A stretch of 57,038 nt of DNA from contig CAZAUE010000003.1 of NCBI GenBank assembly GCA_964488565.1, forward strand, positions 1-57,038. The letters run 5' to 3'. The notes under the pieces are model-generated. The model did not search any database. It worked only from the letters and a program-made list of their open reading frames with translations, and was not told where the DNA came from. Below, in pieces: positions 37,839 through 47,026 of the stretch (its first letter is position 1; each line of letters starts with the position of its first letter). The stretch is from an uncultured Candidatus Saccharibacteria bacterium. GTDB taxonomy: Bacteria; Patescibacteriota; Minisyncoccia; 2-02-FULL-40-12; GWA2-44-9. The position numbers and the translations under genes were made by a program.

Positions 37839-38246
37839 TTATAATTTTGCCCTGCCGTTCTCAACCTCTGTATGACAGTTTTTACACAATAAAATACATT
37901 TTTGAGCTTCCTTCATAACAGTTGCCCATGAATAACATAATCCCTTAACACTTAGCGCAAAGGATTTAGTTTTAGGGTTAATATGATGAAAATCAAGAGC
38001 GCCACTATATTTTTTATAACCACAAATAATACATTTACCGCCAAATATTTTTACCAATTTTTCCTTCTTGTTTCTGCGACTATCTATGACCCACTCGGAG
38101 GCACATTTACCACAACGATAAGTGTTATCGCCTCGTTTTAAGTGTTTTGTTTTTCCGTGTTTTGAACATTCAATTATCATTGTATTAAGTATAACACTTA
38201 GTGTTAAGACGTAAAACCTTATATCGATTAATTTGAAATCTTTCAT
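37839..38246 (-). CDS. HNH endonuclease with zinc-binding motifs (likely start ATG 38180)
   Basis: CSKHG..YRCGKC; GGKCIICGY; ALDFHH; CILLCKNCHTEVE. Confidence 0.82.
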   Translation of the reverse strand: MKDFKLIDIRFYVLTLSVILNTMIIECSKHGKTKHLKRGDNTYRCGKCASEWVIDSRRNKKEKLVKIFGGKCIICGYKKYSGALDFHHINPKTKSFALSVKGLCYSWATVMKEAQKCILLCKNCHTEVENGRAKL

Positions 38247-38280: not shown

Positions 38281-38531
38281 TCCGCGGTAGCTCAATGGTA
38301 GAGCGGCTCCCTGTCAAATAAGGCAGCTTCACGCAGAAATGCGAGATGAAAAACTGGGCTAATTCGGGGAAACCTTTTAACTGGCAATCCCGAGCTAAAT
38401 TCACGCAAGTGATAAATGTGTAGAGACTATATACCCGGATCCCGTTAGGGATATGAGATAGTCCACCCCATTACGAAAGTTATGGATCATGTGTAAGGAG
38501 ATGGTTCCAGGTTCGAGTCCTGGCCGCGGAG
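38281..38531 (+). tRNA. tRNA-Asn(GTT) interrupted by a group I intron; exons 38281-38314 and 38494-38531
   Basis: Acceptor tccgcgg/ccgcgga + G73; D arm gctc-aatggta-gagc; joined loop CT-GT|T-AA; T arm ccagg-ttcgagt-cctgg. Confidence 0.9.
38315..38493 (+). ncRNA. Group I intron (179 nt, no ORF) between anticodon positions 35 and 36
   Basis: P1 ctgtc/ggcag with U-G pair at the splice site; aattcgggga and aatcccgagc core; P7 gacta/tagtc; P8 atccc/gggat; terminal G. Confidence 0.9.
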
Positions 38532-40162
38532 CACTTGTCATGATTTTGGTTTAAAACATCAGAATCGTGGCGAAGAATCAGTGTTTTTTGAAGTTCGAAA
38601 TTCTTTTTAACTTCGGGAGTCATTGATTCTATTGGTTGAACACTAAGAACGCCAGAAGCCCCATTAATACTGGGGTTTTTGGTTGGTTCGAAATTATTAT
38701 TGAGTTTTGGTGCCCAATCAGCTAAGAATTTGAAACCAGGAGTGTATTCGGCACTTACCTTACCTGCCAATAAATTAATGTTGGAGAAAACATAACTCAA
38801 CAACAACCTCTGTTCATCTTTTGTTATATGCTTGCATTTATATATATCCTTAACATGTAAAGCTAGCTCATGAATGGCCAGCCCAGCCTCATAGTAGGCC
38901 GTACGAGTCTCGCTAAGGCTCTCCAAGGCCTTTATGGCGGAGTTTTTTTCATCGGTGGCATCCTTTATCATTTTTTCACAAATTTCCAAGGGAAGCTCTT
39001 CTAGCAGTTTGCCTCGATATGCTCCTTCGATGATTTTATCAGAGGACTTAATGATTCTTTGGAGGTTTTCTTTCTGACGAGTATGCTCAGTAATCTCTTC
39101 TTTATGGCTGTCTTTTAACGCCTTGGTAAGTTTTTCAACTATTCTTGGATTTTTCATAACTACTGCATTGAAGAATGGTAAAAGTCGATTTTCAAATTCT
39201 GTCTCGAGTATAGTTCCAGCCTGAGAACAGTTTTTGTAGTGATTGCAATTTCCACGCCACTTACCCTTACTGAGATACCAGCTTATTACGCCTTTGCACT
39301 CCTCGCATCTAACCTTCCCTTTATACAGGGGAAGGTGTTTCTGATATTTACCGCCATGTTTGGCGTTTAATCTAGTCTGCACAGAGTCGAATAACTCTGG
39401 TGATATGATAGCTTCATGAGAACCATTTTGAGCCTTATCATTCCAAACCATTTTACCGCAGTAGAACGGGTCTGATAATAATTCATGGAGCCTGCTCTTT
39501 AATACTTTGCCACCCTTCTCATTTCGTAAACCTTTGTCGTATATTGCTTCAACGAGTCTCGATAACGAGTAGTTTCCTGAATTATATTTCTCAAAAGCTT
39601 CTCGCATCAGTCCGTCCATTGGCGGATTTACAACATGATGCTTGTGACCTTTTTCACCGATAGTTTTATAGCCAATTTTAGCCCTGCTTGGATAACCGCC
39701 CATTTTAAGTTTCTGTGCCTGACCCTTCTTAACCTCTTCTGAGAGGTTATTAATGTAAAATCTGGCTATTGCAACTTTCATATCCCAAACCAAATTTTCA
39801 TGGGCTTTAGTGTTCTGATTAAGAATAAAAGATTCTTTGATAAAGTGAACCTCACGCTTCAAATCGCCCTTAACCCACTCGTCAACAATACTGGCATCTT
39901 TGGGAGTTCTGGTCAGTCTGTCTATTTTCTCGCAGAGAATAACTGAAATCTTATGCTTAGCAGTATATTCCAGCATCTCGGTAAATATTTTTCTAATCTG
40001 CTTACCGCTTGCTGACTCAGCAATACGATACTCTTTTACAACATCGAATCCTTTTCGTTCGGCATATTCTTTAAGGAGAGAAAGCTGGGCATCTAAAGAA
40101 TAGCCAGTATCTTCCTGCTCTTTACTACTAACGCGGGCATAAATTACGCATTTAATTTTCAT
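38480..40162 (-). CDS. Large serine recombinase (resolvase + recombinase + zinc ribbon)
   Basis: IYARVSSKEQ catalytic Ser, EKIDRLTR, RCEECKG..CNHYKNC; frame runs through the tRNA 3' exon antisense. Confidence 0.9.
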   Translation of the reverse strand: MKIKCVIYARVSSKEQEDTGYSLDAQLSLLKEYAERKGFDVVKEYRIAESASGKQIRKIFTEMLEYTAKHKISVILCEKIDRLTRTPKDASIVDEWVKGDLKREVHFIKESFILNQNTKAHENLVWDMKVAIARFYINNLSEEVKKGQAQKLKMGGYPSRAKIGYKTIGEKGHKHHVVNPPMDGLMREAFEKYNSGNYSLSRLVEAIYDKGLRNEKGGKVLKSRLHELLSDPFYCGKMVWNDKAQNGSHEAIISPELFDSVQTRLNAKHGGKYQKHLPLYKGKVRCEECKGVISWYLSKGKWRGNCNHYKNCSQAGTILETEFENRLLPFFNAVVMKNPRIVEKLTKALKDSHKEEITEHTRQKENLQRIIKSSDKIIEGAYRGKLLEELPLEICEKMIKDATDEKNSAIKALESLSETRTAYYEAGLAIHELALHVKDIYKCKHITKDEQRLLLSYVFSNINLLAGKVSAEYTPGFKFLADWAPKLNNNFEPTKNPSINGASGVLSVQPIESMTPEVKKNFELQKTLILRHDSDVLNQNHDKCSAARTRTWNHLLTHDP

Positions 40163-40438
40163 TTCTAAGATAAAAGGGATAACTTGCTGGACATAACCTC
40201 TTGCGAGACTATAGGCAAATTATCCCATTTATCCCCACAAGATTATGTTATGTCCATCTAAATTATACCTCTTTTTAATTGATTAGTAAATTGTCCAGGT
40301 TGCCTAACTATTTATTTGCCAGACAAATAAATTTTCTAAACACAGAATTCTTTATTGGTTTTAAGGAAAAAAGAGAGAAAATTCTTTATTCTTTAATTTA
40401 TTTCCTTTTTCTTGTTTCTATTCATCTTATTTAATGTG

Positions 40439-40921
40439 CTATTTCGTGCCTGTAATAAAGGCAGGTTTTTGCACAGACGGTAGGCAAAGTTGTGACGGTT
40501 CCTGATACTTAATAGAAATCTCGTTACTGTTATTAAACCGTCTTTTTGTTGTTATAAATTTTTCTTCCTTGAGTCTTGATATAGCCGACCTCACTGTTCT
40601 TATCGGAATATTAAGGTCTTTTGATATTGTTTTCTGGCTACACCAAACTTTCTCTTTTCTTGATAGGGTTATTTTACCCCTGTTATACTCTGACTTAATA
40701 TGTTTCCAGTCATAAGATAATATACAGCCCAACACTCTCCACGTCGAACCGCTAAGGCGACTACCCCTTAAAAAGAATGAATAAGGAACCACTACCACTC
40801 TTTTTGTTAAGTCCCTGGTAACTAATGGCGCCCATGCAGGCATTCCTGGTGGCATATCATATCCTGGAATATAATCTCTTACCGTCTCTATTTCTCCATC
40901 AATTGTATTATCTTTATCCAT
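40439..40921 (-). CDS. Helix-turn-helix protein (replication-initiator-like wHTH)
   Basis: VWCSQKTISKDLNIPIRTVRSAISRLKEEKFIT pattern. Confidence 0.7.
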   Translation of the reverse strand: MDKDNTIDGEIETVRDYIPGYDMPPGMPAWAPLVTRDLTKRVVVVPYSFFLRGSRLSGSTWRVLGCILSYDWKHIKSEYNRGKITLSRKEKVWCSQKTISKDLNIPIRTVRSAISRLKEEKFITTKRRFNNSNEISIKYQEPSQLCLPSVQKPAFITGTK

Positions 40922-41081
40922 TTTGTGTGTCTTTTTGTGTCCTATGGCTAACTTTTGCCAGTAAGTCGAAATAGCCTAACCAATCATAAGCAAATCTTGA
41001 AACTTCCTGGAAAGAAAAATCTTTGCCATAGTCCTCTTTAATTATTTGTCGTAGTTCACTCACAAACTCTTTTTCGACCAT
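40914..41081 (-). CDS. 55-aa small helical protein (not in ORF track)
   Basis: MVEKEFVSELRQIIKEDYGKDFSFQEVSRFAYDWLGYFDLLAKV...; stop overlaps the start of the HTH gene. Confidence 0.6.
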   Translation of the reverse strand: MVEKEFVSELRQIIKEDYGKDFSFQEVSRFAYDWLGYFDLLAKVSHRTQKDTQNG

Positions 41082-41389
41082 ACACTAAGCCTACACTTGG
41101 TAACTGGTGTAATAAAATGTGGATTAGCCAAATTCCTCGCATTTTGTTTGTCTAAAAGTTTGTTCATTCAGAGCTATTTTCTTGATTTTACTTGTGTTTT
41201 TAGTATTAAATTCAAGGCTCATCATCAATGATTGGGTCTTTGTTAATATGGGGCTTGTAATAATAACCTTTCCGAGAAAAATTCTACATCGGGGTGGTGC
41301 ACGTTCTGGTATTAAAAATATTTTCTAGTCTTCATAAATTATCAGTAGACAGGGCAAATAAAAAGGGTATAATTTAATCAAAACTAAAC

Positions 41390-41516
41390 AGGAGCCTAAA
41401 CTCGGCTGATTTATCAGCAGGGCATGGCACAAAATCGTAGCGTATATAGACCCCATCATAGGGCGTACGCTACGTTGCAGACCGAAAGGTTTGTAGGTCA
41501 CCGAAAGGTGGCTCCT
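41390..41516 (+). promoter_or_regulatory. Structured leader / ncRNA candidate
   Basis: Closing stem aggagcc/ggctcct; 9-bp cgtagcgta/tacgctacg; two GAAA-capped hairpins; tagaca..tataat promoter-like sequence upstream. Confidence 0.45.
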
Positions 41517-41536
41517 GTGGTGGGTTTTATGTTTTT

Positions 41537-42010
41537 ATGAAAACAATAATAGTTCTTCTAGTGTTGGATTTATTTGTGTTTGTTTTAGTCCCCTTGGGGA
41601 GTAAGAGAGAGTGGACTAAAAAAGATTTTAAATACTACTATTTGATGTGGGGCGTATTTTTAGGTATTCCCACACTGCTTTTAATTTCAAAACTTATGGG
41701 CATTATAAATCTAGAAAATATGGCTTCAATATTTCAAATATATGGTTTAAGAGTAATAGTGGGCATAATTTCGGGTGTGGTTTTATTGTTGCTAACTTTT
41801 CTATTATTTTATTGTTTTTTCAGAGGTATTTGGGAAGAAATTAGGAAATCTATAATCAAAGGATTGAAAAAAGATATAAACGGAACTTCGGTTCCTATCA
41901 CCCAAAAAGAAGAAAATATTTTTGACCAACTAGAGGAAGTTCAGCCATCCGAAGGGCAAGAGGAGGAAGCTTATGTGATTTTTCACTCTGATAAAAATGA
42001 ACATAAATAA
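41537..42010 (+). CDS. Hypothetical membrane protein
   Basis: Three hydrophobic segments, acidic tail. Confidence 0.65.
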   Translation: MKTIIVLLVLDLFVFVLVPLGSKREWTKKDFKYYYLMWGVFLGIPTLLLISKLMGIINLENMASIFQIYGLRVIVGIISGVVLLLLTFLLFYCFFRGIWEEIRKSIIKGLKKDINGTSVPITQKEENIFDQLEEVQPSEGQEEEAYVIFHSDKNEHK

Positions 42011-42251
42011 ACACATCTATGTTATTACGGGTGTTGTTATTCTCGTCTTGGCTGGCTATTTTTACTTTATCCAAACCAACAATCAAGAAGTTGTTGAGTC
42101 TCAGGAGATGGGGGCTGATACATCAGAATCATTATCTATAAACCCCAAAGAAATACTTAAATATGACCCGAATGCTCCAGCATGGATGCAAGATGCTGAA
42201 TCGTGCACCAAGGTTAGAGAAAAGATTTTCTGCAAGCTCAAGGGTGAATAA
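41997..42251 (+). CDS. Small membrane-anchored hypothetical protein
   Basis: N-terminal TM, C-terminal C..C; overlaps upstream gene. Confidence 0.6.
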   Translation: MNINKHIYVITGVVILVLAGYFYFIQTNNQEVVESQEMGADTSESLSINPKEILKYDPNAPAWMQDAESCTKVREKIFCKLKGE

Positions 42252-42408
42252 AGCCCAAATCCAGAGTATTCATAGGGAGTTTATAAGGGGTTATTGAGTG
42301 GTTAAATTGACCTAAAATTACCCTGAGGAGCATCCAAAAGACACTTAAAAGACCCTAAATTACATCAAAAAGCATGCTATAGACAAACACTTAAAAACAG
42401 CGCAAGAT

Positions 42409-43458
42409 ATGACTATTGTGACTTACCTAAAAAAGAACTGGTTTCGGGCTATTCTCGTAGTAATAATTGTTATTTCTGTTCTCTCTATGTTTAGCAATTA
42501 CAGTAGTGCCGATGTTTATGTAAATGGTTATTATCGTAGTAACGGAACTTATGTAAATGGATATTACAGGAGTTCTCCCGACAGTAATCCATATAACAAT
42601 TACAGCTATCCAGGAAATACCAACCCTTATACTGGCAAGGTAGCCCCAGGAAACCCCGATACTTATCTAAAGAACTATTACGGAGGTTCGTCAGGTGGCT
42701 CTTCTGGGGGAAGTTATTATAATTACTATTCGACCCCGACACCTACCCCCTCTTGTCCATCCATGTCTAGCTATAACTCTTTAAGTGGTTCTTGTGAGTG
42801 TTATTCGGGGTATGTAGCTGATGGAGGTAGCTGTACGAGTGGTCTGAGTTATTGTTGGTCTAAATATGGCTACAATTCCAGCTATAGTTATCTTAATAAA
42901 AACTGTGAGTGTGATTATGGATATGAATTAAAATATGGGACATGTACCAAAAGTCCAACACCTACACCAACTCCGATTGACCCAGACGCATCGTGCAGAA
43001 GAAGCTTTGGAAACTACTCTTTGGCTAGTACGAGTAAGCCTGGTTATTGTACCTGTGTAAGTGGCTATAAATTTGACGCAAACAAGCAGTGCACTTTTGT
43101 TCCCATTTTTATTCCAACTCCAATACCAACGCCAATCCCGACACCTAATTTTCAGAGCATCTCTAATCAAGCAAAGATTAGCTTAAAAAAGTTCCAAGAA
43201 CCAATACCGTCTTCGACACCAGTAAGCATTAGTTGTAAGGGTGATTATTCAATATCTTTAGATAAAAAACGATGTGTCAAAATTCCAAACAATGCTCATC
43301 CTGCCAATGATGGCAAAAATGTTTGGCTTTGTAATGATGGCTATGTGGAAAAAGGTAATTTTTGTGTTTTAACAAGTCCTTCCTTAAACTCATTTCCGAT
43401 AACTGATACTTCTCCGAAAAGTAATAAAAGTGGTTGGGGTATATTTAAATTCTGGTAA
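42409..43458 (+). CDS. Secreted Cys-rich EGF-like repeat protein with PT linkers
   Basis: YVNGYYRSNGTYVNGYYRS; CECYSGY, CECDYGY, CTCVSGY, WLCNDGY repeats. Confidence 0.75.
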   Translation: MTIVTYLKKNWFRAILVVIIVISVLSMFSNYSSADVYVNGYYRSNGTYVNGYYRSSPDSNPYNNYSYPGNTNPYTGKVAPGNPDTYLKNYYGGSSGGSSGGSYYNYYSTPTPTPSCPSMSSYNSLSGSCECYSGYVADGGSCTSGLSYCWSKYGYNSSYSYLNKNCECDYGYELKYGTCTKSPTPTPTPIDPDASCRRSFGNYSLASTSKPGYCTCVSGYKFDANKQCTFVPIFIPTPIPTPIPTPNFQSISNQAKISLKKFQEPIPSSTPVSISCKGDYSISLDKKRCVKIPNNAHPANDGKNVWLCNDGYVEKGNFCVLTSPSLNSFPITDTSPKSNKSGWGIFKFW

Positions 43459-43463
43459 ATTAT

Positions 43464-43898
43464 ATGCAAACACAAGACAAGAGACGGTTTTGGCTTGGCG
43501 TGGTTTATCTAGGCGTAGTTGTTTCTGGAGTGTATACATTTTTACATTTTGGAGAAAAGATATTTTTCAACGTAAGTCCTATTAATAATCCTTATCTAAT
43601 GTTCGGACGGATTTGGTTTTCCTTTTGGTGTGGGTTGTTGGGCATTTCCCTACGAGCATTTAAATTTTCACGAAACGGGAGAGTTTCTCCTTGGATGCCA
43701 TATCTCTTTAAGTATCCCGTTCTTATTTTTTTTGAATCTGTATTTGTTTTTTCTATTCTAAATATGAGCGAAATTATTTCATTAAGTTATCTCTTTTATA
43801 CATTTACACTCCCAGTAATGTTTTATCTGGGATTTGGAGCCTTTGAGGCTTATTCGGAATTAAAGCAATTATTACGCAACAATTCGGGTATGGATTAA
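43464..43898 (+). CDS. Hypothetical multi-pass membrane protein
   Basis: Four hydrophobic segments. Confidence 0.65.
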   Translation: MQTQDKRRFWLGVVYLGVVVSGVYTFLHFGEKIFFNVSPINNPYLMFGRIWFSFWCGLLGISLRAFKFSRNGRVSPWMPYLFKYPVLIFFESVFVFSILNMSEIISLSYLFYTFTLPVMFYLGFGAFEAYSELKQLLRNNSGMD

Positions 43899-44009
43899 TA
43901 CTAAAAACATGCTCCGTGGTTAAATTCTGTGGTTTATATTAAACAAAGACTGGCAATTCCTGCCATGTTTTGTTAGATTGGTTCAGTATAAATTAATTTC
44001 AATGCAATT

Positions 44010-46604
44010 ATGTCCGATAAATCAAGTTTAAGAGGCTCTGAATGGGGAAAATGGGATTTACATTTCCATACCCCAAGTTCGTATGATTATCAGAATAAAT
44101 CCGTAACTAATTTAGAAATCGTTAGCATTCTAAAGCGTGCCAATATTAAGGTTGTGGCAATTACAGACCACCATTTTATTGATGTCCAGAGAATTAAAAA
44201 CTTAAAAGAATTAGCTGGGGGTGATATAACCTTTCTCCCAGGCATAGAATTCTGCTCTAATTCCAGAGGAAAGGAGCCCATTCATTTTATTGGAATATTT
44301 CCAGAAAACTCGGATGTTGAGTATGTCTGGAACGAGATAAACGCAAAAGCTGAAATAGCAAAACAAAAAAAAGATGGCAAATCTGATTCTGAGATATACT
44401 GCAACATAGAAACAACATCGAAGATAATAAAAGGTCTAGGTGGCCTGATTTCTGTCCATGCTGGTAAGAAATCAAATTCTTTGGAAACTATTACCAATTC
44501 TCTTCCTGTTAATATGGCGGAAAAAGAAGATATTGTAAAACACATTGATATCTTTGAATTGGGACAAGAGGGAGACCAAGACAGCTATATAAAAAAAGTT
44601 TTTCCTAAAATTGGTGACCGTCCCATGGTAATATGTTCCGACAATCACAATATTAAGAAATATAAACTGAAACAATCTTGCTGGATAAAAGCAGACCTGA
44701 CCTTTGAAGGCTTGAGACAGATTTTATATGAACCGAAAGATAGAATAAAAATTCAAGAGCTTAAGCCAGAAGATAAATCCAATTATAATATTATCGATAG
44801 GGTGGAATATAAAAATCCATCCGAAACCGATAACAGGGTTATATATTTTAATCCAAATCTGTGTTCCGTTATTGGAAGTCGTGCTTCAGGAAAATCAAAT
44901 CTGCTAAAAAATATAGCTTTGTCAATTGACCCAGACCAGTGCAGATTAAAAAACATTAGCCACACAGATCTATTTAAACTTAAAGATTTTAAATTATTTT
45001 GGAAAGATGGTAAGAGCAATATCTTAGACCCAGAAACCAAAGAAAAAGGTGTGTTGTTTATACCCCAAGGATACTTGGGGGAAATAGTATACAACAAAAA
45101 TCGCCAATTTGATGATTTCTTATCAGAATTATTTGAGAATAAAGAAGAATTCAGCCAAGCTTTGCAGAGCTACAGAAACTTTGAAGACGGTAATATTTTG
45201 GAAATTACATCCTTAACAAGAGAACTTTTGGCTATGAGAGAAAATGGTAGAGAAAAACAAAACAAGGTCAAGAAACTTGGGAAAAGAGAAGACATAGAAA
45301 TAGACATAAAAAAAATTGATACAAAAATTAAAGAAGTAAATGATGTCGAGAAAAACATTACATTAGAGGAGATAGAAAGTTATAAAAATTTAAACTCGAA
45401 TAGGTCTAAAAAAGAGAAAGAGCTCAAGCTGATTGAGGGGGACATCTCCTCTCTGGAGTTATTAAAAGAAGAAGAGATTATAACAGCAGATAGGATTTCT
45501 GAGTTTGATTTTTCTAAAGAATTCATGGAGAAAATCGAGAAGAAATTAAAAGAGTCTGACGATGCCTTTAAAAAAGATTTTATAGTACTGGAAATAAATA
45601 AACTTGTTAAAAACAAAAAGAAGATTGAAAAGGAAATTTTAGAGTTTGAAGGAAAAATAAAACCACTAAAGATTAAAATAGATAAACACAAGGCGCTAGC
45701 GGAACTAACCAAATCTCTTCAAGACAAAAAAGAGGACCTCGTACTGATAAATTCTCTTAAAAAAGACATCTCTGACCTAAGAGTAGTATACGGTGATAAA
45801 TTGCTTGACATCATCAACAAATATATGTTCTTTGACACTCAATATAAAAGCCTCAGTATTAATATTGGTTCACTAAAATTTTCAGCAGTAGATATAACCA
45901 CAGACTTCGATGATGATTTATTCAAAAATTTTATTGAAAATAATATTAATTATCACAATTCGATTTCTTTCAGAAAAGACCAGGATAAAAAATATGTGTC
46001 GGCAAACAAATTTCTTAGCGATATGGGTCAGTGGGCCTATGATAAGAAGGATTTCTCTATACTATTGAAACAAATTATGCTGGGAATTTTGTCTGGAGAT
46101 TTGCTATTAAAATCAGGGAGGGATGAGGAAAGTGTTATCATAGAATTGTTCAAAAATCGGTTTAAAATTAATTTTTTAAAAAGTATAAAAAACAAGAGTG
46201 GAAATGAATTCGAGGATATGTCAGATGGGGAAAAAGCCCTCGCACTCTTGGAGTTTATTTTTAAGTTTGATAACTATAACTATCCTGTATTAATAGACCA
46301 ACCTGAAGATGACCTTGATTCTAGGGCAATATCAAAACATATTGTAGATTTTATCAAAGAAGAGAAGGGTAAAAGACAGGTCATAATAGTATCGCACAAT
46401 GCAAACATGGTTGTATGCGGAGATAGTGAGGAAGTCATCGTATCAGAAAAAAAAGGTGGCAAAACACCTATCTTTGAATATTCTTCAGGTGCTATCGAAG
46501 ATAAAAAAATTAGTCGGGAGATAATAGAAATATTAGAAGGAGGTAAGATTGCTTTGGCAAAACGTCGTGATAAACTTGGACTATCTAATAATCAAAAACC
46601 CTAA
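44010..46604 (+). CDS. PHP phosphoesterase fused to ABC/SMC-like ATPase (TrlF/Ppl-like)
   Basis: WGKWDLHFHTP, ITDHH, GIEF, SVHAG, CSDNH; Walker A GSRASGKS; coiled coil; MSDGEK; LIDQPEDDLD; VSHN. Confidence 0.85.
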   Translation: MSDKSSLRGSEWGKWDLHFHTPSSYDYQNKSVTNLEIVSILKRANIKVVAITDHHFIDVQRIKNLKELAGGDITFLPGIEFCSNSRGKEPIHFIGIFPENSDVEYVWNEINAKAEIAKQKKDGKSDSEIYCNIETTSKIIKGLGGLISVHAGKKSNSLETITNSLPVNMAEKEDIVKHIDIFELGQEGDQDSYIKKVFPKIGDRPMVICSDNHNIKKYKLKQSCWIKADLTFEGLRQILYEPKDRIKIQELKPEDKSNYNIIDRVEYKNPSETDNRVIYFNPNLCSVIGSRASGKSNLLKNIALSIDPDQCRLKNISHTDLFKLKDFKLFWKDGKSNILDPETKEKGVLFIPQGYLGEIVYNKNRQFDDFLSELFENKEEFSQALQSYRNFEDGNILEITSLTRELLAMRENGREKQNKVKKLGKREDIEIDIKKIDTKIKEVNDVEKNITLEEIESYKNLNSNRSKKEKELKLIEGDISSLELLKEEEIITADRISEFDFSKEFMEKIEKKLKESDDAFKKDFIVLEINKLVKNKKKIEKEILEFEGKIKPLKIKIDKHKALAELTKSLQDKKEDLVLINSLKKDISDLRVVYGDKLLDIINKYMFFDTQYKSLSINIGSLKFSAVDITTDFDDDLFKNFIENNINYHNSISFRKDQDKKYVSANKFLSDMGQWAYDKKDFSILLKQIMLGILSGDLLLKSGRDEESVIIELFKNRFKINFLKSIKNKSGNEFEDMSDGEKALALLEFIFKFDNYNYPVLIDQPEDDLDSRAISKHIVDFIKEEKGKRQVIIVSHNANMVVCGDSEEVIVSEKKGGKTPIFEYSSGAIEDKKISREIIEILEGGKIALAKRRDKLGLSNNQKP

Positions 46605-46660
46605 AGGTGCGATGTTTCTTTTATTTGATTTTTTAGGGTTTTTGAGATAAACATATCTAA

Positions 46661-47026
46661 ATGGATAAGGACTATAAAAGAGAAGCCCTTAGAATACTGA
46701 AGGTCAGTAATTGGACAGATGATATGATTAGCAAAGCTTTTGCCGTTTCTGAGAAAGAAATTATTAGGATAGAATCAACAAAGAAGAATATATACAAGGA
46801 AGAACATAGAAAAAGAATCATGAACATTTTACCACCTGATTTAAAGAAACAGGTTGATTACCTATCTACTTATAGAAAAAGAAATAAAACGATTGTTAAT
46901 GAGCGGGTTAATATTATCAGAAGATTAAGAAGTGAATTCCCTTTTTCTTTTCCAGAGATAGGTCTACTACTCAGAAGAGACCATTCAACGATAATGCATC
47001 ATTACAAATCAAGCGTTGAGCATTAA
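46661..47026 (+). CDS. Small protein with DnaA domain IV-like HTH
   Basis: FSFPEIGLLLRRDHSTIMHH resembles the DnaA C-terminal S.PEIG..F.RDHTTV.HA motif. Confidence 0.65.
   Translation: MDKDYKREALRILKVSNWTDDMISKAFAVSEKEIIRIESTKKNIYKEEHRKRIMNILPPDLKKQVDYLSTYRKRNKTIVNERVNIIRRLRSEFPFSFPEIGLLLRRDHSTIMHHYKSSVEH

Follow-up and report, generated by a model that had tools for sequence, protein, structure and literature searches.

A hairpin-rich segment at positions 41390–41516 of the window (the whole 57,038-nt stretch analyzed, contig CAZAUE010000003.1 of an uncultured Candidatus Saccharibacteria bacterium) lies at the head of a series of island cargo genes, and raises the question of what kind of element it is and how it might act on the genes behind it. 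A first-pass annotation read it as a structured leader behind a promoter, and this description fits. The elements that it listed are all present: AGGAGCC (41390–41396) and GGCTCCT (41510–41516), GCTGAT/ATCAGC, a 9–10-bp stem that forms the base of hairpin H2 described below, two GAAA hairpins, an upstream TAGACA–16 nt–TATAAT sequence and an ATG at 41537, 20 nt after 41516. At 50% G+C, the stretch also stands out as GC-rich from the AT-rich DNA around it (~35%).

The segment is a member of the LOOT RNA family

Searching the window with cmscan matches 41393–41513 (+) to the Rfam family RF03000 (LOOT) with 73.3 bits, compared with a gathering score of 46.4. The match spans model positions 1–121 of 121 (E = 6e-12 over the whole window), and the structured segment is a new, full-length member of the family. 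No other Rfam family scores above noise at the segment, including c4 (RF01695) and the riboswitch models. The statement in the first-pass annotation that no known riboswitch matches is therefore correct as far as riboswitches are concerned, but an Rfam scan does return a known family. The window copy has the same four hairpins, the conserved internal loop in the first of them and the GAAA/GNRA loops of RF03000, and is not set apart from the family by any feature.

LOOT is a catalogued RNA family from ultra-small (CPR/Patescibacteria), uncultured or metagenomic bacteria. The source of RF03000 is the Weinberg/Breaker ZWD alignments and its Rfam type is ‘Gene; sRNA’. The Rfam 14 paper (PMC7779021) presents the family as a ‘metagenomic-based RNA’, the CaCoFold paper (PMC7657543) cites its dense covariation, and Rfam 15 (PMC11701678) refined it by 2 pairs. 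LOOT is not mentioned in the main text of Weinberg 2017, and we found no published function, taxon or genomic role for it in the literature. With its dense covariation it is among the better-supported orphan RNA structures in Rfam. As a discovery the window copy adds little because the family is already known. What extends beyond the public model is family-wide: a covarying long-range helix followed by a U-run, a conserved promoter and a leader position on mobile islands.

The distribution of LOOT is patchy. It occurs in 46 of 151 related small genomes, with at most four copies per genome, and in a single copy in the 745-kb, Yanofskybacteria-like CPR genome studied here. Named LOOT-bearing MAGs are of the Yanofsky-, Saccharibacteria-, Paceibacteria-, Uhr-, Magasanik-, Falkow- and Levybacteria-type. 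Two pattern scans were run, one of IMG/VR and one of GTDB genomes; 3 of 32 viral matches and 75 of 120 genome matches are true LOOT, indicating that the family is poorly represented in IMG/VR under the pattern used. The pattern is unspecific, and many matches in both scans are not true LOOT.

Four hairpins and a candidate tetraloop receptor

The LOOT core is composed of four consecutive hairpins:

41393–41513, + strand: LOOT core, hairpins H1–H4 (Rfam RF03000 match)
41394–41428, + strand: H1, hairpin with internal loop CCUAAA (41395–41400)/CAUGG (41423–41427)
41436–41474, + strand: H2, 10-bp basal stem (41436–41445 with 41465–41474) and apex (41446–41464), a weak local hairpin
41476–41495, + strand: H3, 8-bp hairpin with GAAA loop (41484–41487)
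41496–41513, + strand: H4, 7-bp hairpin with GAAA loop (41503–41506)

The + strand RNA folds with −53.5 kcal/mol (z = −5.8), a value that none of 200 shuffled sequences attains, compared with z = −3.3 for the − strand. The four-domain minimum free energy (MFE) fold is recovered in all 44 homologues folded. The first-pass annotation had named homologues and covariation as the evidence on which its reading turned, and both are abundant. Pairs in H1 show compensatory changes in RNAalifold. Because MAFFT misaligns H2, H3 and H4, covariation in these hairpins was assessed by per-sequence folds and by comparing the pairing of cognate and non-cognate strands. The basal stem of H2, formed in the window by CGTAGCGTA(T) at 41436–41445 and (G)TACGCTACG at 41465–41474, has 37 distinct 5′ strands among 42 copies, and pairs with −15.4 kcal/mol for cognate and −3.6 kcal/mol for non-cognate strands. 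The corresponding values are −8.9 and −2.7 kcal/mol for the H3 stem and −7.0 and −2.0 kcal/mol for the H4 stem. The H2 apex folds locally with a mean of −5.5 kcal/mol (z = −2.3).

The H1 internal loop, which lies below the GCTGAT/ATCAGC hairpin that forms the top of H1, is almost invariant across the alignment, and its two main variants change in concert (CCUAAA/CAUGG in 23 copies, CCUAAC/UAUGG in 12). Of 42 copies, 41 have GAAA as the H3 loop and 38 have a GNRA loop on H4 (GAAA 19, GCAA 13, GUAA 4). Conserved unpaired nucleotides are also found in an A-rich linker and in the H2 internal loop (AUA).

The 11-nt GAAA tetraloop receptor (CCUAAG/UAUGG) is found in J6a/b of the Tetrahymena P4–P6 domain, and also in RNase P and group II introns. 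We take the H1 internal loop CCUAAA/CAUGG, which agrees with it at 10 of 11 positions, to be a form of this motif. The near-invariant GAAA loop of H3 fits the GAAA specificity of the receptor, whereas the canonical closing G–U is replaced in LOOT by A–C or C–U, the two positions changing together. Judged from these motifs, the H3 loop probably docks into the H1 receptor to form a compact core.

A long-range helix joins the H2 apex to a 3′ tail

Directly 3′ of H4, homologues retain the consensus YnGYGGCGGGYUUUGUGUUU. This tail pairs with the H2 apex to form a long-range helix, T:

41442–41462, + strand: helix T, 5′ strand (H2 apex and top of the H2 5′ strand), pairing with 41514–41534
41514–41536, + strand: helix T, 3′ strand (41514–41534), and U-run (41525–41536), outside the Rfam model

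The helix contains an 11-bp GC-rich core (41452–41462 with 41514–41524), in which CCCAUCAUAGG pairs with CCUGUGGUGGG. The core is followed by UUUUAUGUUUUU, giving the GC-rich stem and U-rich tract on the transcribed strand that are found in an intrinsic terminator. A Shine–Dalgarno (SD)-like GGUGGG (41519–41524) lies within the 3′ strand of T, and the U-run abuts the ATG at 41537.

All 45 loci have helix T, which covaries. Cognate T duplexes average −22.1 kcal/mol, compared with −14.6 kcal/mol for non-cognate ones, and a second set of 77 loci gives −22.0 and −15.7 kcal/mol. In alignment A1 the helix is paired in 94% of cells, and compensatory double changes occur at 13 of its 15 pairs; none of 500 shuffles reaches this level, and slid controls give 44–57%. 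RNAalifold selects T unprompted. The tail makes the nested MFE 6.6 ± 2.2 kcal/mol lower across loci. In the window the difference is 8.6 kcal/mol, and the full-length MFE fold, tail included, uses T and reaches the AUG. At two T positions the commonest pair is a U–G wobble (30 of 43 and 37 of 43).

T and the covarying H2 basal stem are interleaved, which makes T either part of an H-type pseudoknot with that stem or a competitor of H2. T shares nucleotides with the hairpin of the H2 apex, and both are conserved; H2 and T could also coexist as a static pseudoknot that does not switch. A simple terminator scan (consensus, loop 3–8) does not call T, because its strands are ~50 nt apart and enclose H3 and H4, so that the short loop of a canonical terminator is lacking.

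The first-pass annotation had proposed a different switch, between H4 and a closing stem formed by 41390–41396 and 41510–41516. This closing stem is not a conserved feature, pairing in only 3–24 of 43 homologues, and the proposed switch is rejected for this reason. The interleaved helix that is conserved is the one between the H2 apex and the 3′ tail.

A conserved promoter places LOOT at the probable 5′ end of island transcripts

The sequence upstream of LOOT contains a well-matched promoter:

41346–41373, + strand: sigma-70-type promoter with −35 TAGACA (41346–41351), 16-nt spacer and −10 TATAAT (41368–41373), 11 of 12 consensus positions

Given the position of these hexamers, transcription is predicted to start at ~41380. 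Of the 43 homologous loci, 40 have a −10-like hexamer 8–32 nt ahead of LOOT. The extended −10 motif TGnTAnnnT is found in 28 of 43 loci, compared with 1 of 43 in a control region, and mostly ends 14–24 nt before LOOT. Of 43 loci, 39 have LOOT and the nearest downstream gene on one strand, and 31 have a divergent gene as the nearest upstream neighbor. A same-strand ORF starts within ~150 nt of the LOOT end in 41 of 43 loci, mostly at 18–110 nt; the distance is 32 nt or less in seven loci, including the window. Many ORFs downstream of LOOT are not preceded by an obvious SD sequence. Twelve of 43 relatives have a second copy of the H2 5′ strand at the downstream start codon (the ‘a2’ competitor), and pairing of this copy with the H2 3′ strand inside LOOT would hide the start. 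The window has no such competitor (z = 0.1), and its matches to the H2 strand are at chance level.

In the window, LOOT is flanked by the following genes:

38480–40162, − strand: large serine recombinase (integrase), divergent from LOOT (Pfam Resolvase and Recombinase; PHROG 95 integrase, E = 1.6e-66)
40439–40921, − strand: 160-aa winged-helix protein, divergent from LOOT (weak HTH matches in Pfam and PHROGs)
41537–42010, + strand: first cargo ORF, 157 aa, ~4 predicted membrane helices (ORF list, hydropathy count)
41997–47026, + strand: further cargo ORFs of 84 aa, 349 aa and 144 aa, an 864-aa TrlF-family/Ppl-like PHP-ATPase and a 121-aa HTH protein

The 157-aa ORF has no match in Pfam, PHROG, NCBIfam or PADLOC. 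The 864-aa ATPase (44010–46604) matches NCBIfam TrlF_fam_ATP with 444.7 bits (cut-off 350) and the PADLOC Ppl model with E = 7.6e-40. Their common strand and short gaps suggest that the cargo ORFs form one operon. The winged-helix protein, which also has weak PHROG matches to phage replication-initiation proteins, may be an island regulator or a replication-type DNA-binding protein. Neither a relaxase nor a rolling-circle Rep was found among the eight island ORFs (38480–47026) in Pfam, PHROGs or NCBIfam. The small integrative island adjoins a tRNA gene, and DNA homology within the genus ends at ~38.7 kb, placing LOOT inside the island and not at its border.

This setting recurs across the family. 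Large serine recombinase genes lie within 6 kb of LOOT in ~28 of 45 loci, mostly upstream and on the opposite strand, and other neighbors include ParB-methylases, terminases, type I/III restriction-modification genes and reverse transcriptases. The first ORFs behind LOOT are unrelated to one another (small membrane proteins, DNA methylases, a glycosyltransferase and others), with defense genes also among the downstream genes.

A model for LOOT function and its alternatives

In our view LOOT acts in cis as a leader, gating either transcriptional read-through into the island cargo or its translation, with a probability of about 0.55. LOOT would be transcribed from its own sigma-70-type promoter and form the first ~150 bases of the cargo mRNA. 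The four hairpins would fold with the H3 GAAA loop in the H1 receptor, bracing the core, and the 20 nt after H4 would pair with the H2 apex as helix T, ahead of the U-run. With T formed, transcription would stop at the U-run or the ribosome site would be hidden; in the window, the SD-like GGUGGG lies within T, which extends as far as the AUG. If instead the H2 apex folds locally, or the core is held by some factor, the cargo would be expressed. Whether by termination or by occlusion, and whatever the signal, the gate would sit where the window leaves no room for a second promoter, and cargo expression must therefore pass through the LOOT structure. Points that count against the gate are the negative terminator scan, the mixed functions of the genes behind LOOT, the static pseudoknot as an alternative to switching, the lack of an obvious SD sequence ahead of many downstream ORFs and the missing start-codon competitor in the window.

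Elements of this arrangement are familiar. Intrinsic terminators and riboswitch attenuators likewise have a GC-rich helix and a U-run that separate a structured RNA near the promoter from the first ORF, and riboswitch expression platforms likewise form an alternative local hairpin from the same nucleotides. In contrast to these systems, the LOOT stem is long-range, has two hairpins between its strands and interleaves with another stem, and the genes behind LOOT are unrelated to one another. A more specific form of the model, which we put forward tentatively and at somewhat less than even odds, is that LOOT is a dedicated cis-regulatory gate of CPR/Patescibacteria mobile-element cargo, built from a receptor-braced core and a pseudoknotted terminator, and cued by a ligand, by a factor of the host or a phage, or simply by the kinetics of folding upon arrival in a new cell. 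The terminator would then decide the expression of defense, methylase and membrane-protein genes of serine-recombinase islands and prophages.

The same promoter and terminator-like helix also bound a ~150-nt unit, as expected if LOOT were a free-standing trans-acting sRNA with T and the U-run as its own intrinsic terminator and the genes behind it unrelated or reached by leak-through. The heterogeneity of those genes and a compact core with stabilizing tertiary motifs, as in stable RNAs, fit this reading, but we regard it as unlikely: the downstream gene is so regularly on the same strand (39 of 43 loci), the window ATG directly follows the U-run, the H2 5′-strand copy at the start codon in 12 of 43 relatives is a cis arrangement, and a conserved single-stranded seed region is not evident. 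In the seven loci where a gene starts within 32 nt of the LOOT end, that gene has no room for a promoter of its own, which also argues against an sRNA. A true riboswitch, in which a small molecule or ion bound by the H1/H2/H3 core sets T (off) against the H2 apex hairpin (on), would account for the 5′ leader position with its terminator-like platform, for the use of the same nucleotides by two conserved structures and for the conserved unpaired nucleotides of the A-rich linker and H2 internal loop. This is improbable in our estimation. The tetraloop, receptor and terminator explain most invariant nucleotides, H2 and T may coexist as a pseudoknot, Rfam riboswitch models give no match, and the regulated genes do not share the one pathway that a riboswitch would be expected to serve. 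This functional mixture counts against a classical metabolite riboswitch and is the reason for the sRNA typing in Rfam.

The location of LOOT at the start of a rightward transcript, beside a divergent HTH gene and an integrase, recalls the control regions of temperate phages, and terminase genes lie near several LOOT loci. LOOT might thus be a processive antitermination or phage-immunity-type RNA (HK022 put, lambda nut/boxA–boxB, P1 c4/P4 CI) that acts on RNA polymerase or on sites in the same transcript. Like LOOT, the c4, P4 CI and put RNAs are structured and lie at the 5′ end of a temperate-element transcript, but they have no sequence or model similarity to it, and neither c4 nor other phage RNA models match. 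The H2 5′-strand duplication at the start codon of 12 of 43 relatives recalls the c4 a/a′ sites and the complementarity of c4 to a downstream ribosome-binding region; the window copy, however, lacks the duplicated site. The conserved 5′ motif TTAACAATT resembles, as we see it, the E. coli rrn boxA. It spans −2 to +7 of the predicted start, which would leave most of a boxA untranscribed. In two of three relatives examined, UUGUGUU follows a hairpin in the rRNA leader, an arrangement with a loose similarity to the LOOT tail UUUGUGUUU, but this boxA likeness is weak and is seen in relatives only, the genome of the window having no assembled 16S gene; put and nut, moreover, are not known to have a built-in terminator. 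The boxA and antitermination idea is unproven, and we consider this class of mechanism a long shot. Least credible of all is that the element acts as DNA, either as a single-strand origin of replication or oriT, the alternative raised in the first-pass annotation, or as a site of recombination for the island. A hairpin-rich, GC-rich block beside a recombinase in a mobile element would suit such a role, but the + strand folds markedly better than the − strand, the U–G wobbles in T become A–C mismatches on the other strand, and GNRA loops and the 11-nt receptor are RNA tertiary motifs. The conserved promoter in front, the position inside the island and the eight scanned island ORFs, among which no relaxase or Rep was found, likewise weigh against it.

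Implications of the gate model

To our knowledge, gene regulation in CPR bacteria is almost unstudied. If the more specific form of the gate model is true, LOOT would be the first class of regulatory RNA in CPR/Patescibacteria to be linked with the cargo of mobile elements, and its pseudoknot terminator, enclosing two hairpins, would represent a structural type that standard tools miss. The window copy combines a strong promoter, an ATG directly after the U-run and a cargo with a defense-type ATPase, which makes the region 41340–41600 a compact template of ~260 bp for the pseudoknot-terminator idea.

Family identity and distribution

A scan of the entire window against Rfam 15 matches the structured segment to the LOOT family (RF03000) at 41393–41513 (+), with a score of 73.3 bits (gathering score 46.4) and coverage of model positions 1–121 of 121; no other family rises above noise at this segment. 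The segment is an ordinary LOOT member. The searchable literature names LOOT in three places: as a ‘metagenomic-based RNA’ taken from the Weinberg/Breaker ZWD alignments (PMC7779021), for its dense covariation in the CaCoFold paper (PMC7657543), and as a family extended by two covarying pairs in Rfam 15 (PMC11701678). It goes unmentioned in the main text of the Weinberg 2017 survey. As a catalogued family LOOT is already known, and the window copy adds one member; the long-range helix T with its U-run, the receptor/GAAA pair, the promoter and the cargo-leader placement are absent from the searchable LOOT literature. The statement in the first-pass annotation that the leader matches no known riboswitch is narrowly true, in that the catalogued family to which the Rfam scan assigns it carries no assigned function.

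The window's own genome (745 kb, 98.7% complete) contains one copy. The family is patchy: 46 of 151 related genomes, from 30 of 95 genera, carry it, at most four copies each. These genomes are non-independent samples. A pattern scan followed by an nhmmer filter recovered 75 further true copies from GTDB species genomes, nearly all Patescibacteria-type MAGs (Saccharibacteria, Paceibacteria, Yanofsky-, Uhr-, Magasanik-, Falkow-, Kuenen-, Levy- and Doudnabacteria); among IMG/VR pattern matches, 3 of 32 were true copies. Two loci from genomes assigned to different families (L062, G005:C12; L063, G069:C4) are 100% identical over 12,117 bp around LOOT, reflecting either a very recent element transfer or one contig binned into two MAGs.

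Architecture of the LOOT core

The block is GC-rich in AT-rich DNA, as first described (50% G+C; surrounding DNA ~35%), and contains four hairpins, a layout common to all 44 homologues folded:

41394–41428 (+): H1, internal loop CCUAAA (41395–400) opposite CAUGG (41423–27)
41429–35 (+): A-rich linker
41436–74 (+): H2, 10-bp basal stem, apex 41446–64
41476–95 (+): H3, GAAA loop
41496–41513 (+): H4, GAAA loop

The two GAAA hairpins, the 9–10 bp stem CGTAGCGTA/TACGCTACG and the hairpin GCTGAT/ATCAGC recognized in the first-pass annotation are all in place. Its closing stem, AGGAGCC/GGCTCCT, has its complement in the window and pairs in just 3–24 of 43 homologues, which marks it in sequence comparison as a peculiarity of the window copy or a chance match; the switch proposed between this stem and H4 is accordingly not the conserved competition.

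A MAFFT-based alignment is poor for H2, H3 and H4, and their support comes, not from R-scape, but from per-sequence folds and strand-swap controls in which pairing of two strands from one locus (cognate) is compared with pairing between loci (non-cognate). Cognate and non-cognate energies are −15.4 versus −3.6 kcal/mol for the H2 basal stem (37 distinct 5′ strands in 42 copies), −8.9 versus −2.7 kcal/mol for H3 and −7.0 versus −2.0 kcal/mol for H4. At the level of sequence comparison, H1–H4 and helix T are established, with covariation.

The internal loop of H1 agrees at 10 of 11 positions with CCUAAG/UAUGG, the canonical 11-nt GAAA-tetraloop receptor. The two variants of the loop, CCUAAA/CAUGG (23 copies) and CCUAAC/UAUGG (12 copies), differ on both sides in concert. 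Of 42 H3 loops, 41 are GAAA; the H4 loop, also a GNRA, varies in sequence. The receptor match, the paired variants and the near-invariance of the H3 loop suggest that H3 likely docks in the H1 receptor as a tertiary brace. In four loci (L033, L043, L058 and L068), a further short GNRA-looped hairpin (GGAA, GCAA or GUGA) lies directly 5′ of H1, after the promoter.

A long-range helix formed by the 3′ tail

Conservation runs past both Rfam boundaries of LOOT. Directly 3′ of H4 lies a tail with consensus YnGYGGCGGGYUUUGUGUUU, complementary to the H2 apex in all 45 loci. In the window, the resulting helix is followed by UUUUAUGUUUUU and then by the ATG at 41537, the start codon previously noted 20 nt downstream of the block, across which it could be extended with weaker pairs:

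41442–62 with 41514–34 (+): helix T, 11-bp core CCCAUCAUAGG with CCUGUGGUGGG

Cognate T duplexes average −22.1 kcal/mol, versus −14.6 kcal/mol for non-cognate ones, and RNAalifold picked the helix unprompted on the extended alignment. In alignment A1, pairing holds in 94% of cells, and 13 of the 15 pairs have changes in both strands (87 cells); none of 500 shuffles equalled the observed values, and slid controls gave 44–57%. A second set of 77 loci gave −22.0 versus −15.7 kcal/mol, where only the complementarity of the 5′ partner is independent because the loci were picked by a pattern containing the tail motif.

Helix T and the H2 basal stem interleave, so that the two form either an H-type pseudoknot (S1, H2 basal stem; S2, T; loop 3, H3 and H4) or alternative folds. 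In the nested alternative, T displaces H2, and inclusion of the tail makes the MFE 6.6 ± 2.2 kcal/mol lower across loci. The H2 apex retains a local hairpin, weak at a mean of −5.5 kcal/mol (z = −2.3), that must be melted for T to form.

The 16S rRNA leaders of three relatives (L223–L225; G044, G017, G011) consist of a promoter and a long hairpin followed by UUGUGUUGUUGAAGAA, CUGCUUUGGAAAGAA or UUGUGUUAUUG. Leaving CUGCUUUGGAAAGAA aside, the other two bear a loose likeness to UUUGUGUUU, found after helix T in LOOT; any boxA-like role of the LOOT tail is conjectural.

Promoter and gene context

The promoter-like TAGACA-16-TATAAT reported upstream of the window copy (41346–41373) matches at 11 of 12 positions. 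A −10-like hexamer lies 8–32 nt upstream of LOOT in 40 of 43 loci, and the extended form TGnTAnnnT is found in 28 of 43 (control region, 1 of 43), ending 14–24 nt from LOOT in most. These comparisons demonstrate a conserved predicted promoter, whose −10 position would place LOOT 7–17 nt from the transcription start. Eight loci (L037, L041, L043, L046, L049, L053, L054, L056) have a second motif, TGGACGCCAAGGTCGATATTT, 25–45 nt upstream of the −10. It spans the −35 region, occurs in the subset of LOOT loci situated near terminase genes, and could be an operator or specialised promoter element.

Gene context was compared over the flanking 6 kb of LOOT in 45 loci. Of 43 loci, 39 have their closest downstream gene on the same strand as LOOT, 31 have a divergent gene as closest upstream neighbour, and 41 have a same-strand ORF beginning no more than ~150 nt past LOOT (mostly 18–110 nt). 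Large serine recombinases are nearby in ~28 of 45 loci, in most cases upstream of LOOT and in divergent orientation; other recurrent neighbours are ParB-methylases, large and small terminase subunits, type I and type III restriction-modification genes and reverse transcriptases. The carriers are mobile elements of CPR bacteria, either serine-recombinase islands or of phage descent, and on them LOOT occupies a leader position ahead of variable cargo.

In 12 of 43 relatives (L033, L034, L036 copy 0, L041 copy 0, L045, L049 copy 0, L050, L051, L056, L060, L064, L070), the A-rich linker and H2 5′ strand are duplicated 37–67 nt past the LOOT end, where the copy immediately precedes the start codon of the following gene, in many cases a DNA methylase. 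This would allow the H2 3′ strand to pair with the translation start in these loci, several of which have an additional hairpin with GGGCUUUGUGUUU in its loop. The duplication is absent from the window.

Proposed role

We favour, with a probability of roughly 0.55, a role for LOOT as a cis-acting gate on cargo expression. Transcription would start near 41380, and the core would fold first with the GAAA–receptor contact as brace. The emerging tail would then invade the H2 apex to form T, which together with the U-run would end transcription or, in the window, mask the SD-like GGUGGG and the AUG. Because T would terminate or hide the start, cargo output would depend on how frequently T does not form soon enough or is blocked; a ligand, a protein or plain folding kinetics are candidates for setting this balance.

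The same helix could be the terminator of a free-standing sRNA, which we consider less likely; in seven loci, the window among them, the ORF starts within 32 nt of the LOOT end, leaving no space for a separate promoter. A true ligand-sensing riboswitch appears improbable. The first ORFs behind LOOT are mutually unrelated; among them are DNA methylases, a glycosyltransferase and numerous small proteins carrying one to four hydrophobic helices. Lower still we place an antitermination- or immunity-type RNA and a function of the segment as DNA. The predicted + strand RNA fold has −53.5 kcal/mol and z = −5.8, with none of 200 shuffles as good, versus z = −3.3 for the − strand of the same block.

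The island in the window

The gated cargo would, in the window, be a series of + strand ORFs opposite a divergent integrase:

38480–40162 (−): serine integrase
40439–40921 (−): wHTH protein
(+): first cargo ORF after LOOT, predicted four-helix membrane protein, 157 aa
(+): next cargo ORFs, 84, 349 and 144 aa
44010–46604 (+): TrlF-family/Ppl-like PHP-ATPase, AAA-like with N-terminal PHP domain, 864 aa
(+): small HTH protein, last of the cargo ORFs, after the PHP-ATPase

The NCBIfam score of the PHP-ATPase is 444.7 bits (cut-off 350). The protein is a relative of the anti-phage protein Ppl and matches the PADLOC Ppl model with E = 7.6e-40. DNA similarity to same-genus genomes ends at ~38.7 kb, beside a tRNA gene, which fits an integrated element. 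Within 38480–38700, the last ~70 recombinase codons run across the 3′ portion of the tRNA gene and across sequence that same-genus genomes share (78–90% identity up to ~38700), and the left border of the island (attL) seems to fall within the recombinase ORF as annotated.

A group I intron of ~179 nt (Rfam RF00028, 38301–38485, 65.5 bits) splits the anticodon loop of the tRNA gene (38281–38532, +); ARAGORN with introns allowed reports tRNA-Thr(TGT), the anticodon call being uncertain. Among same-genus genomes, G002 has an intron-less allele and G003 and G004 have the intron. Adjoining the tRNA gene on the opposite strand is a 135-aa ORF (37839–38246, −) with a weak match to AI2M-like HNH endonucleases, which may be a free-standing homing endonuclease.
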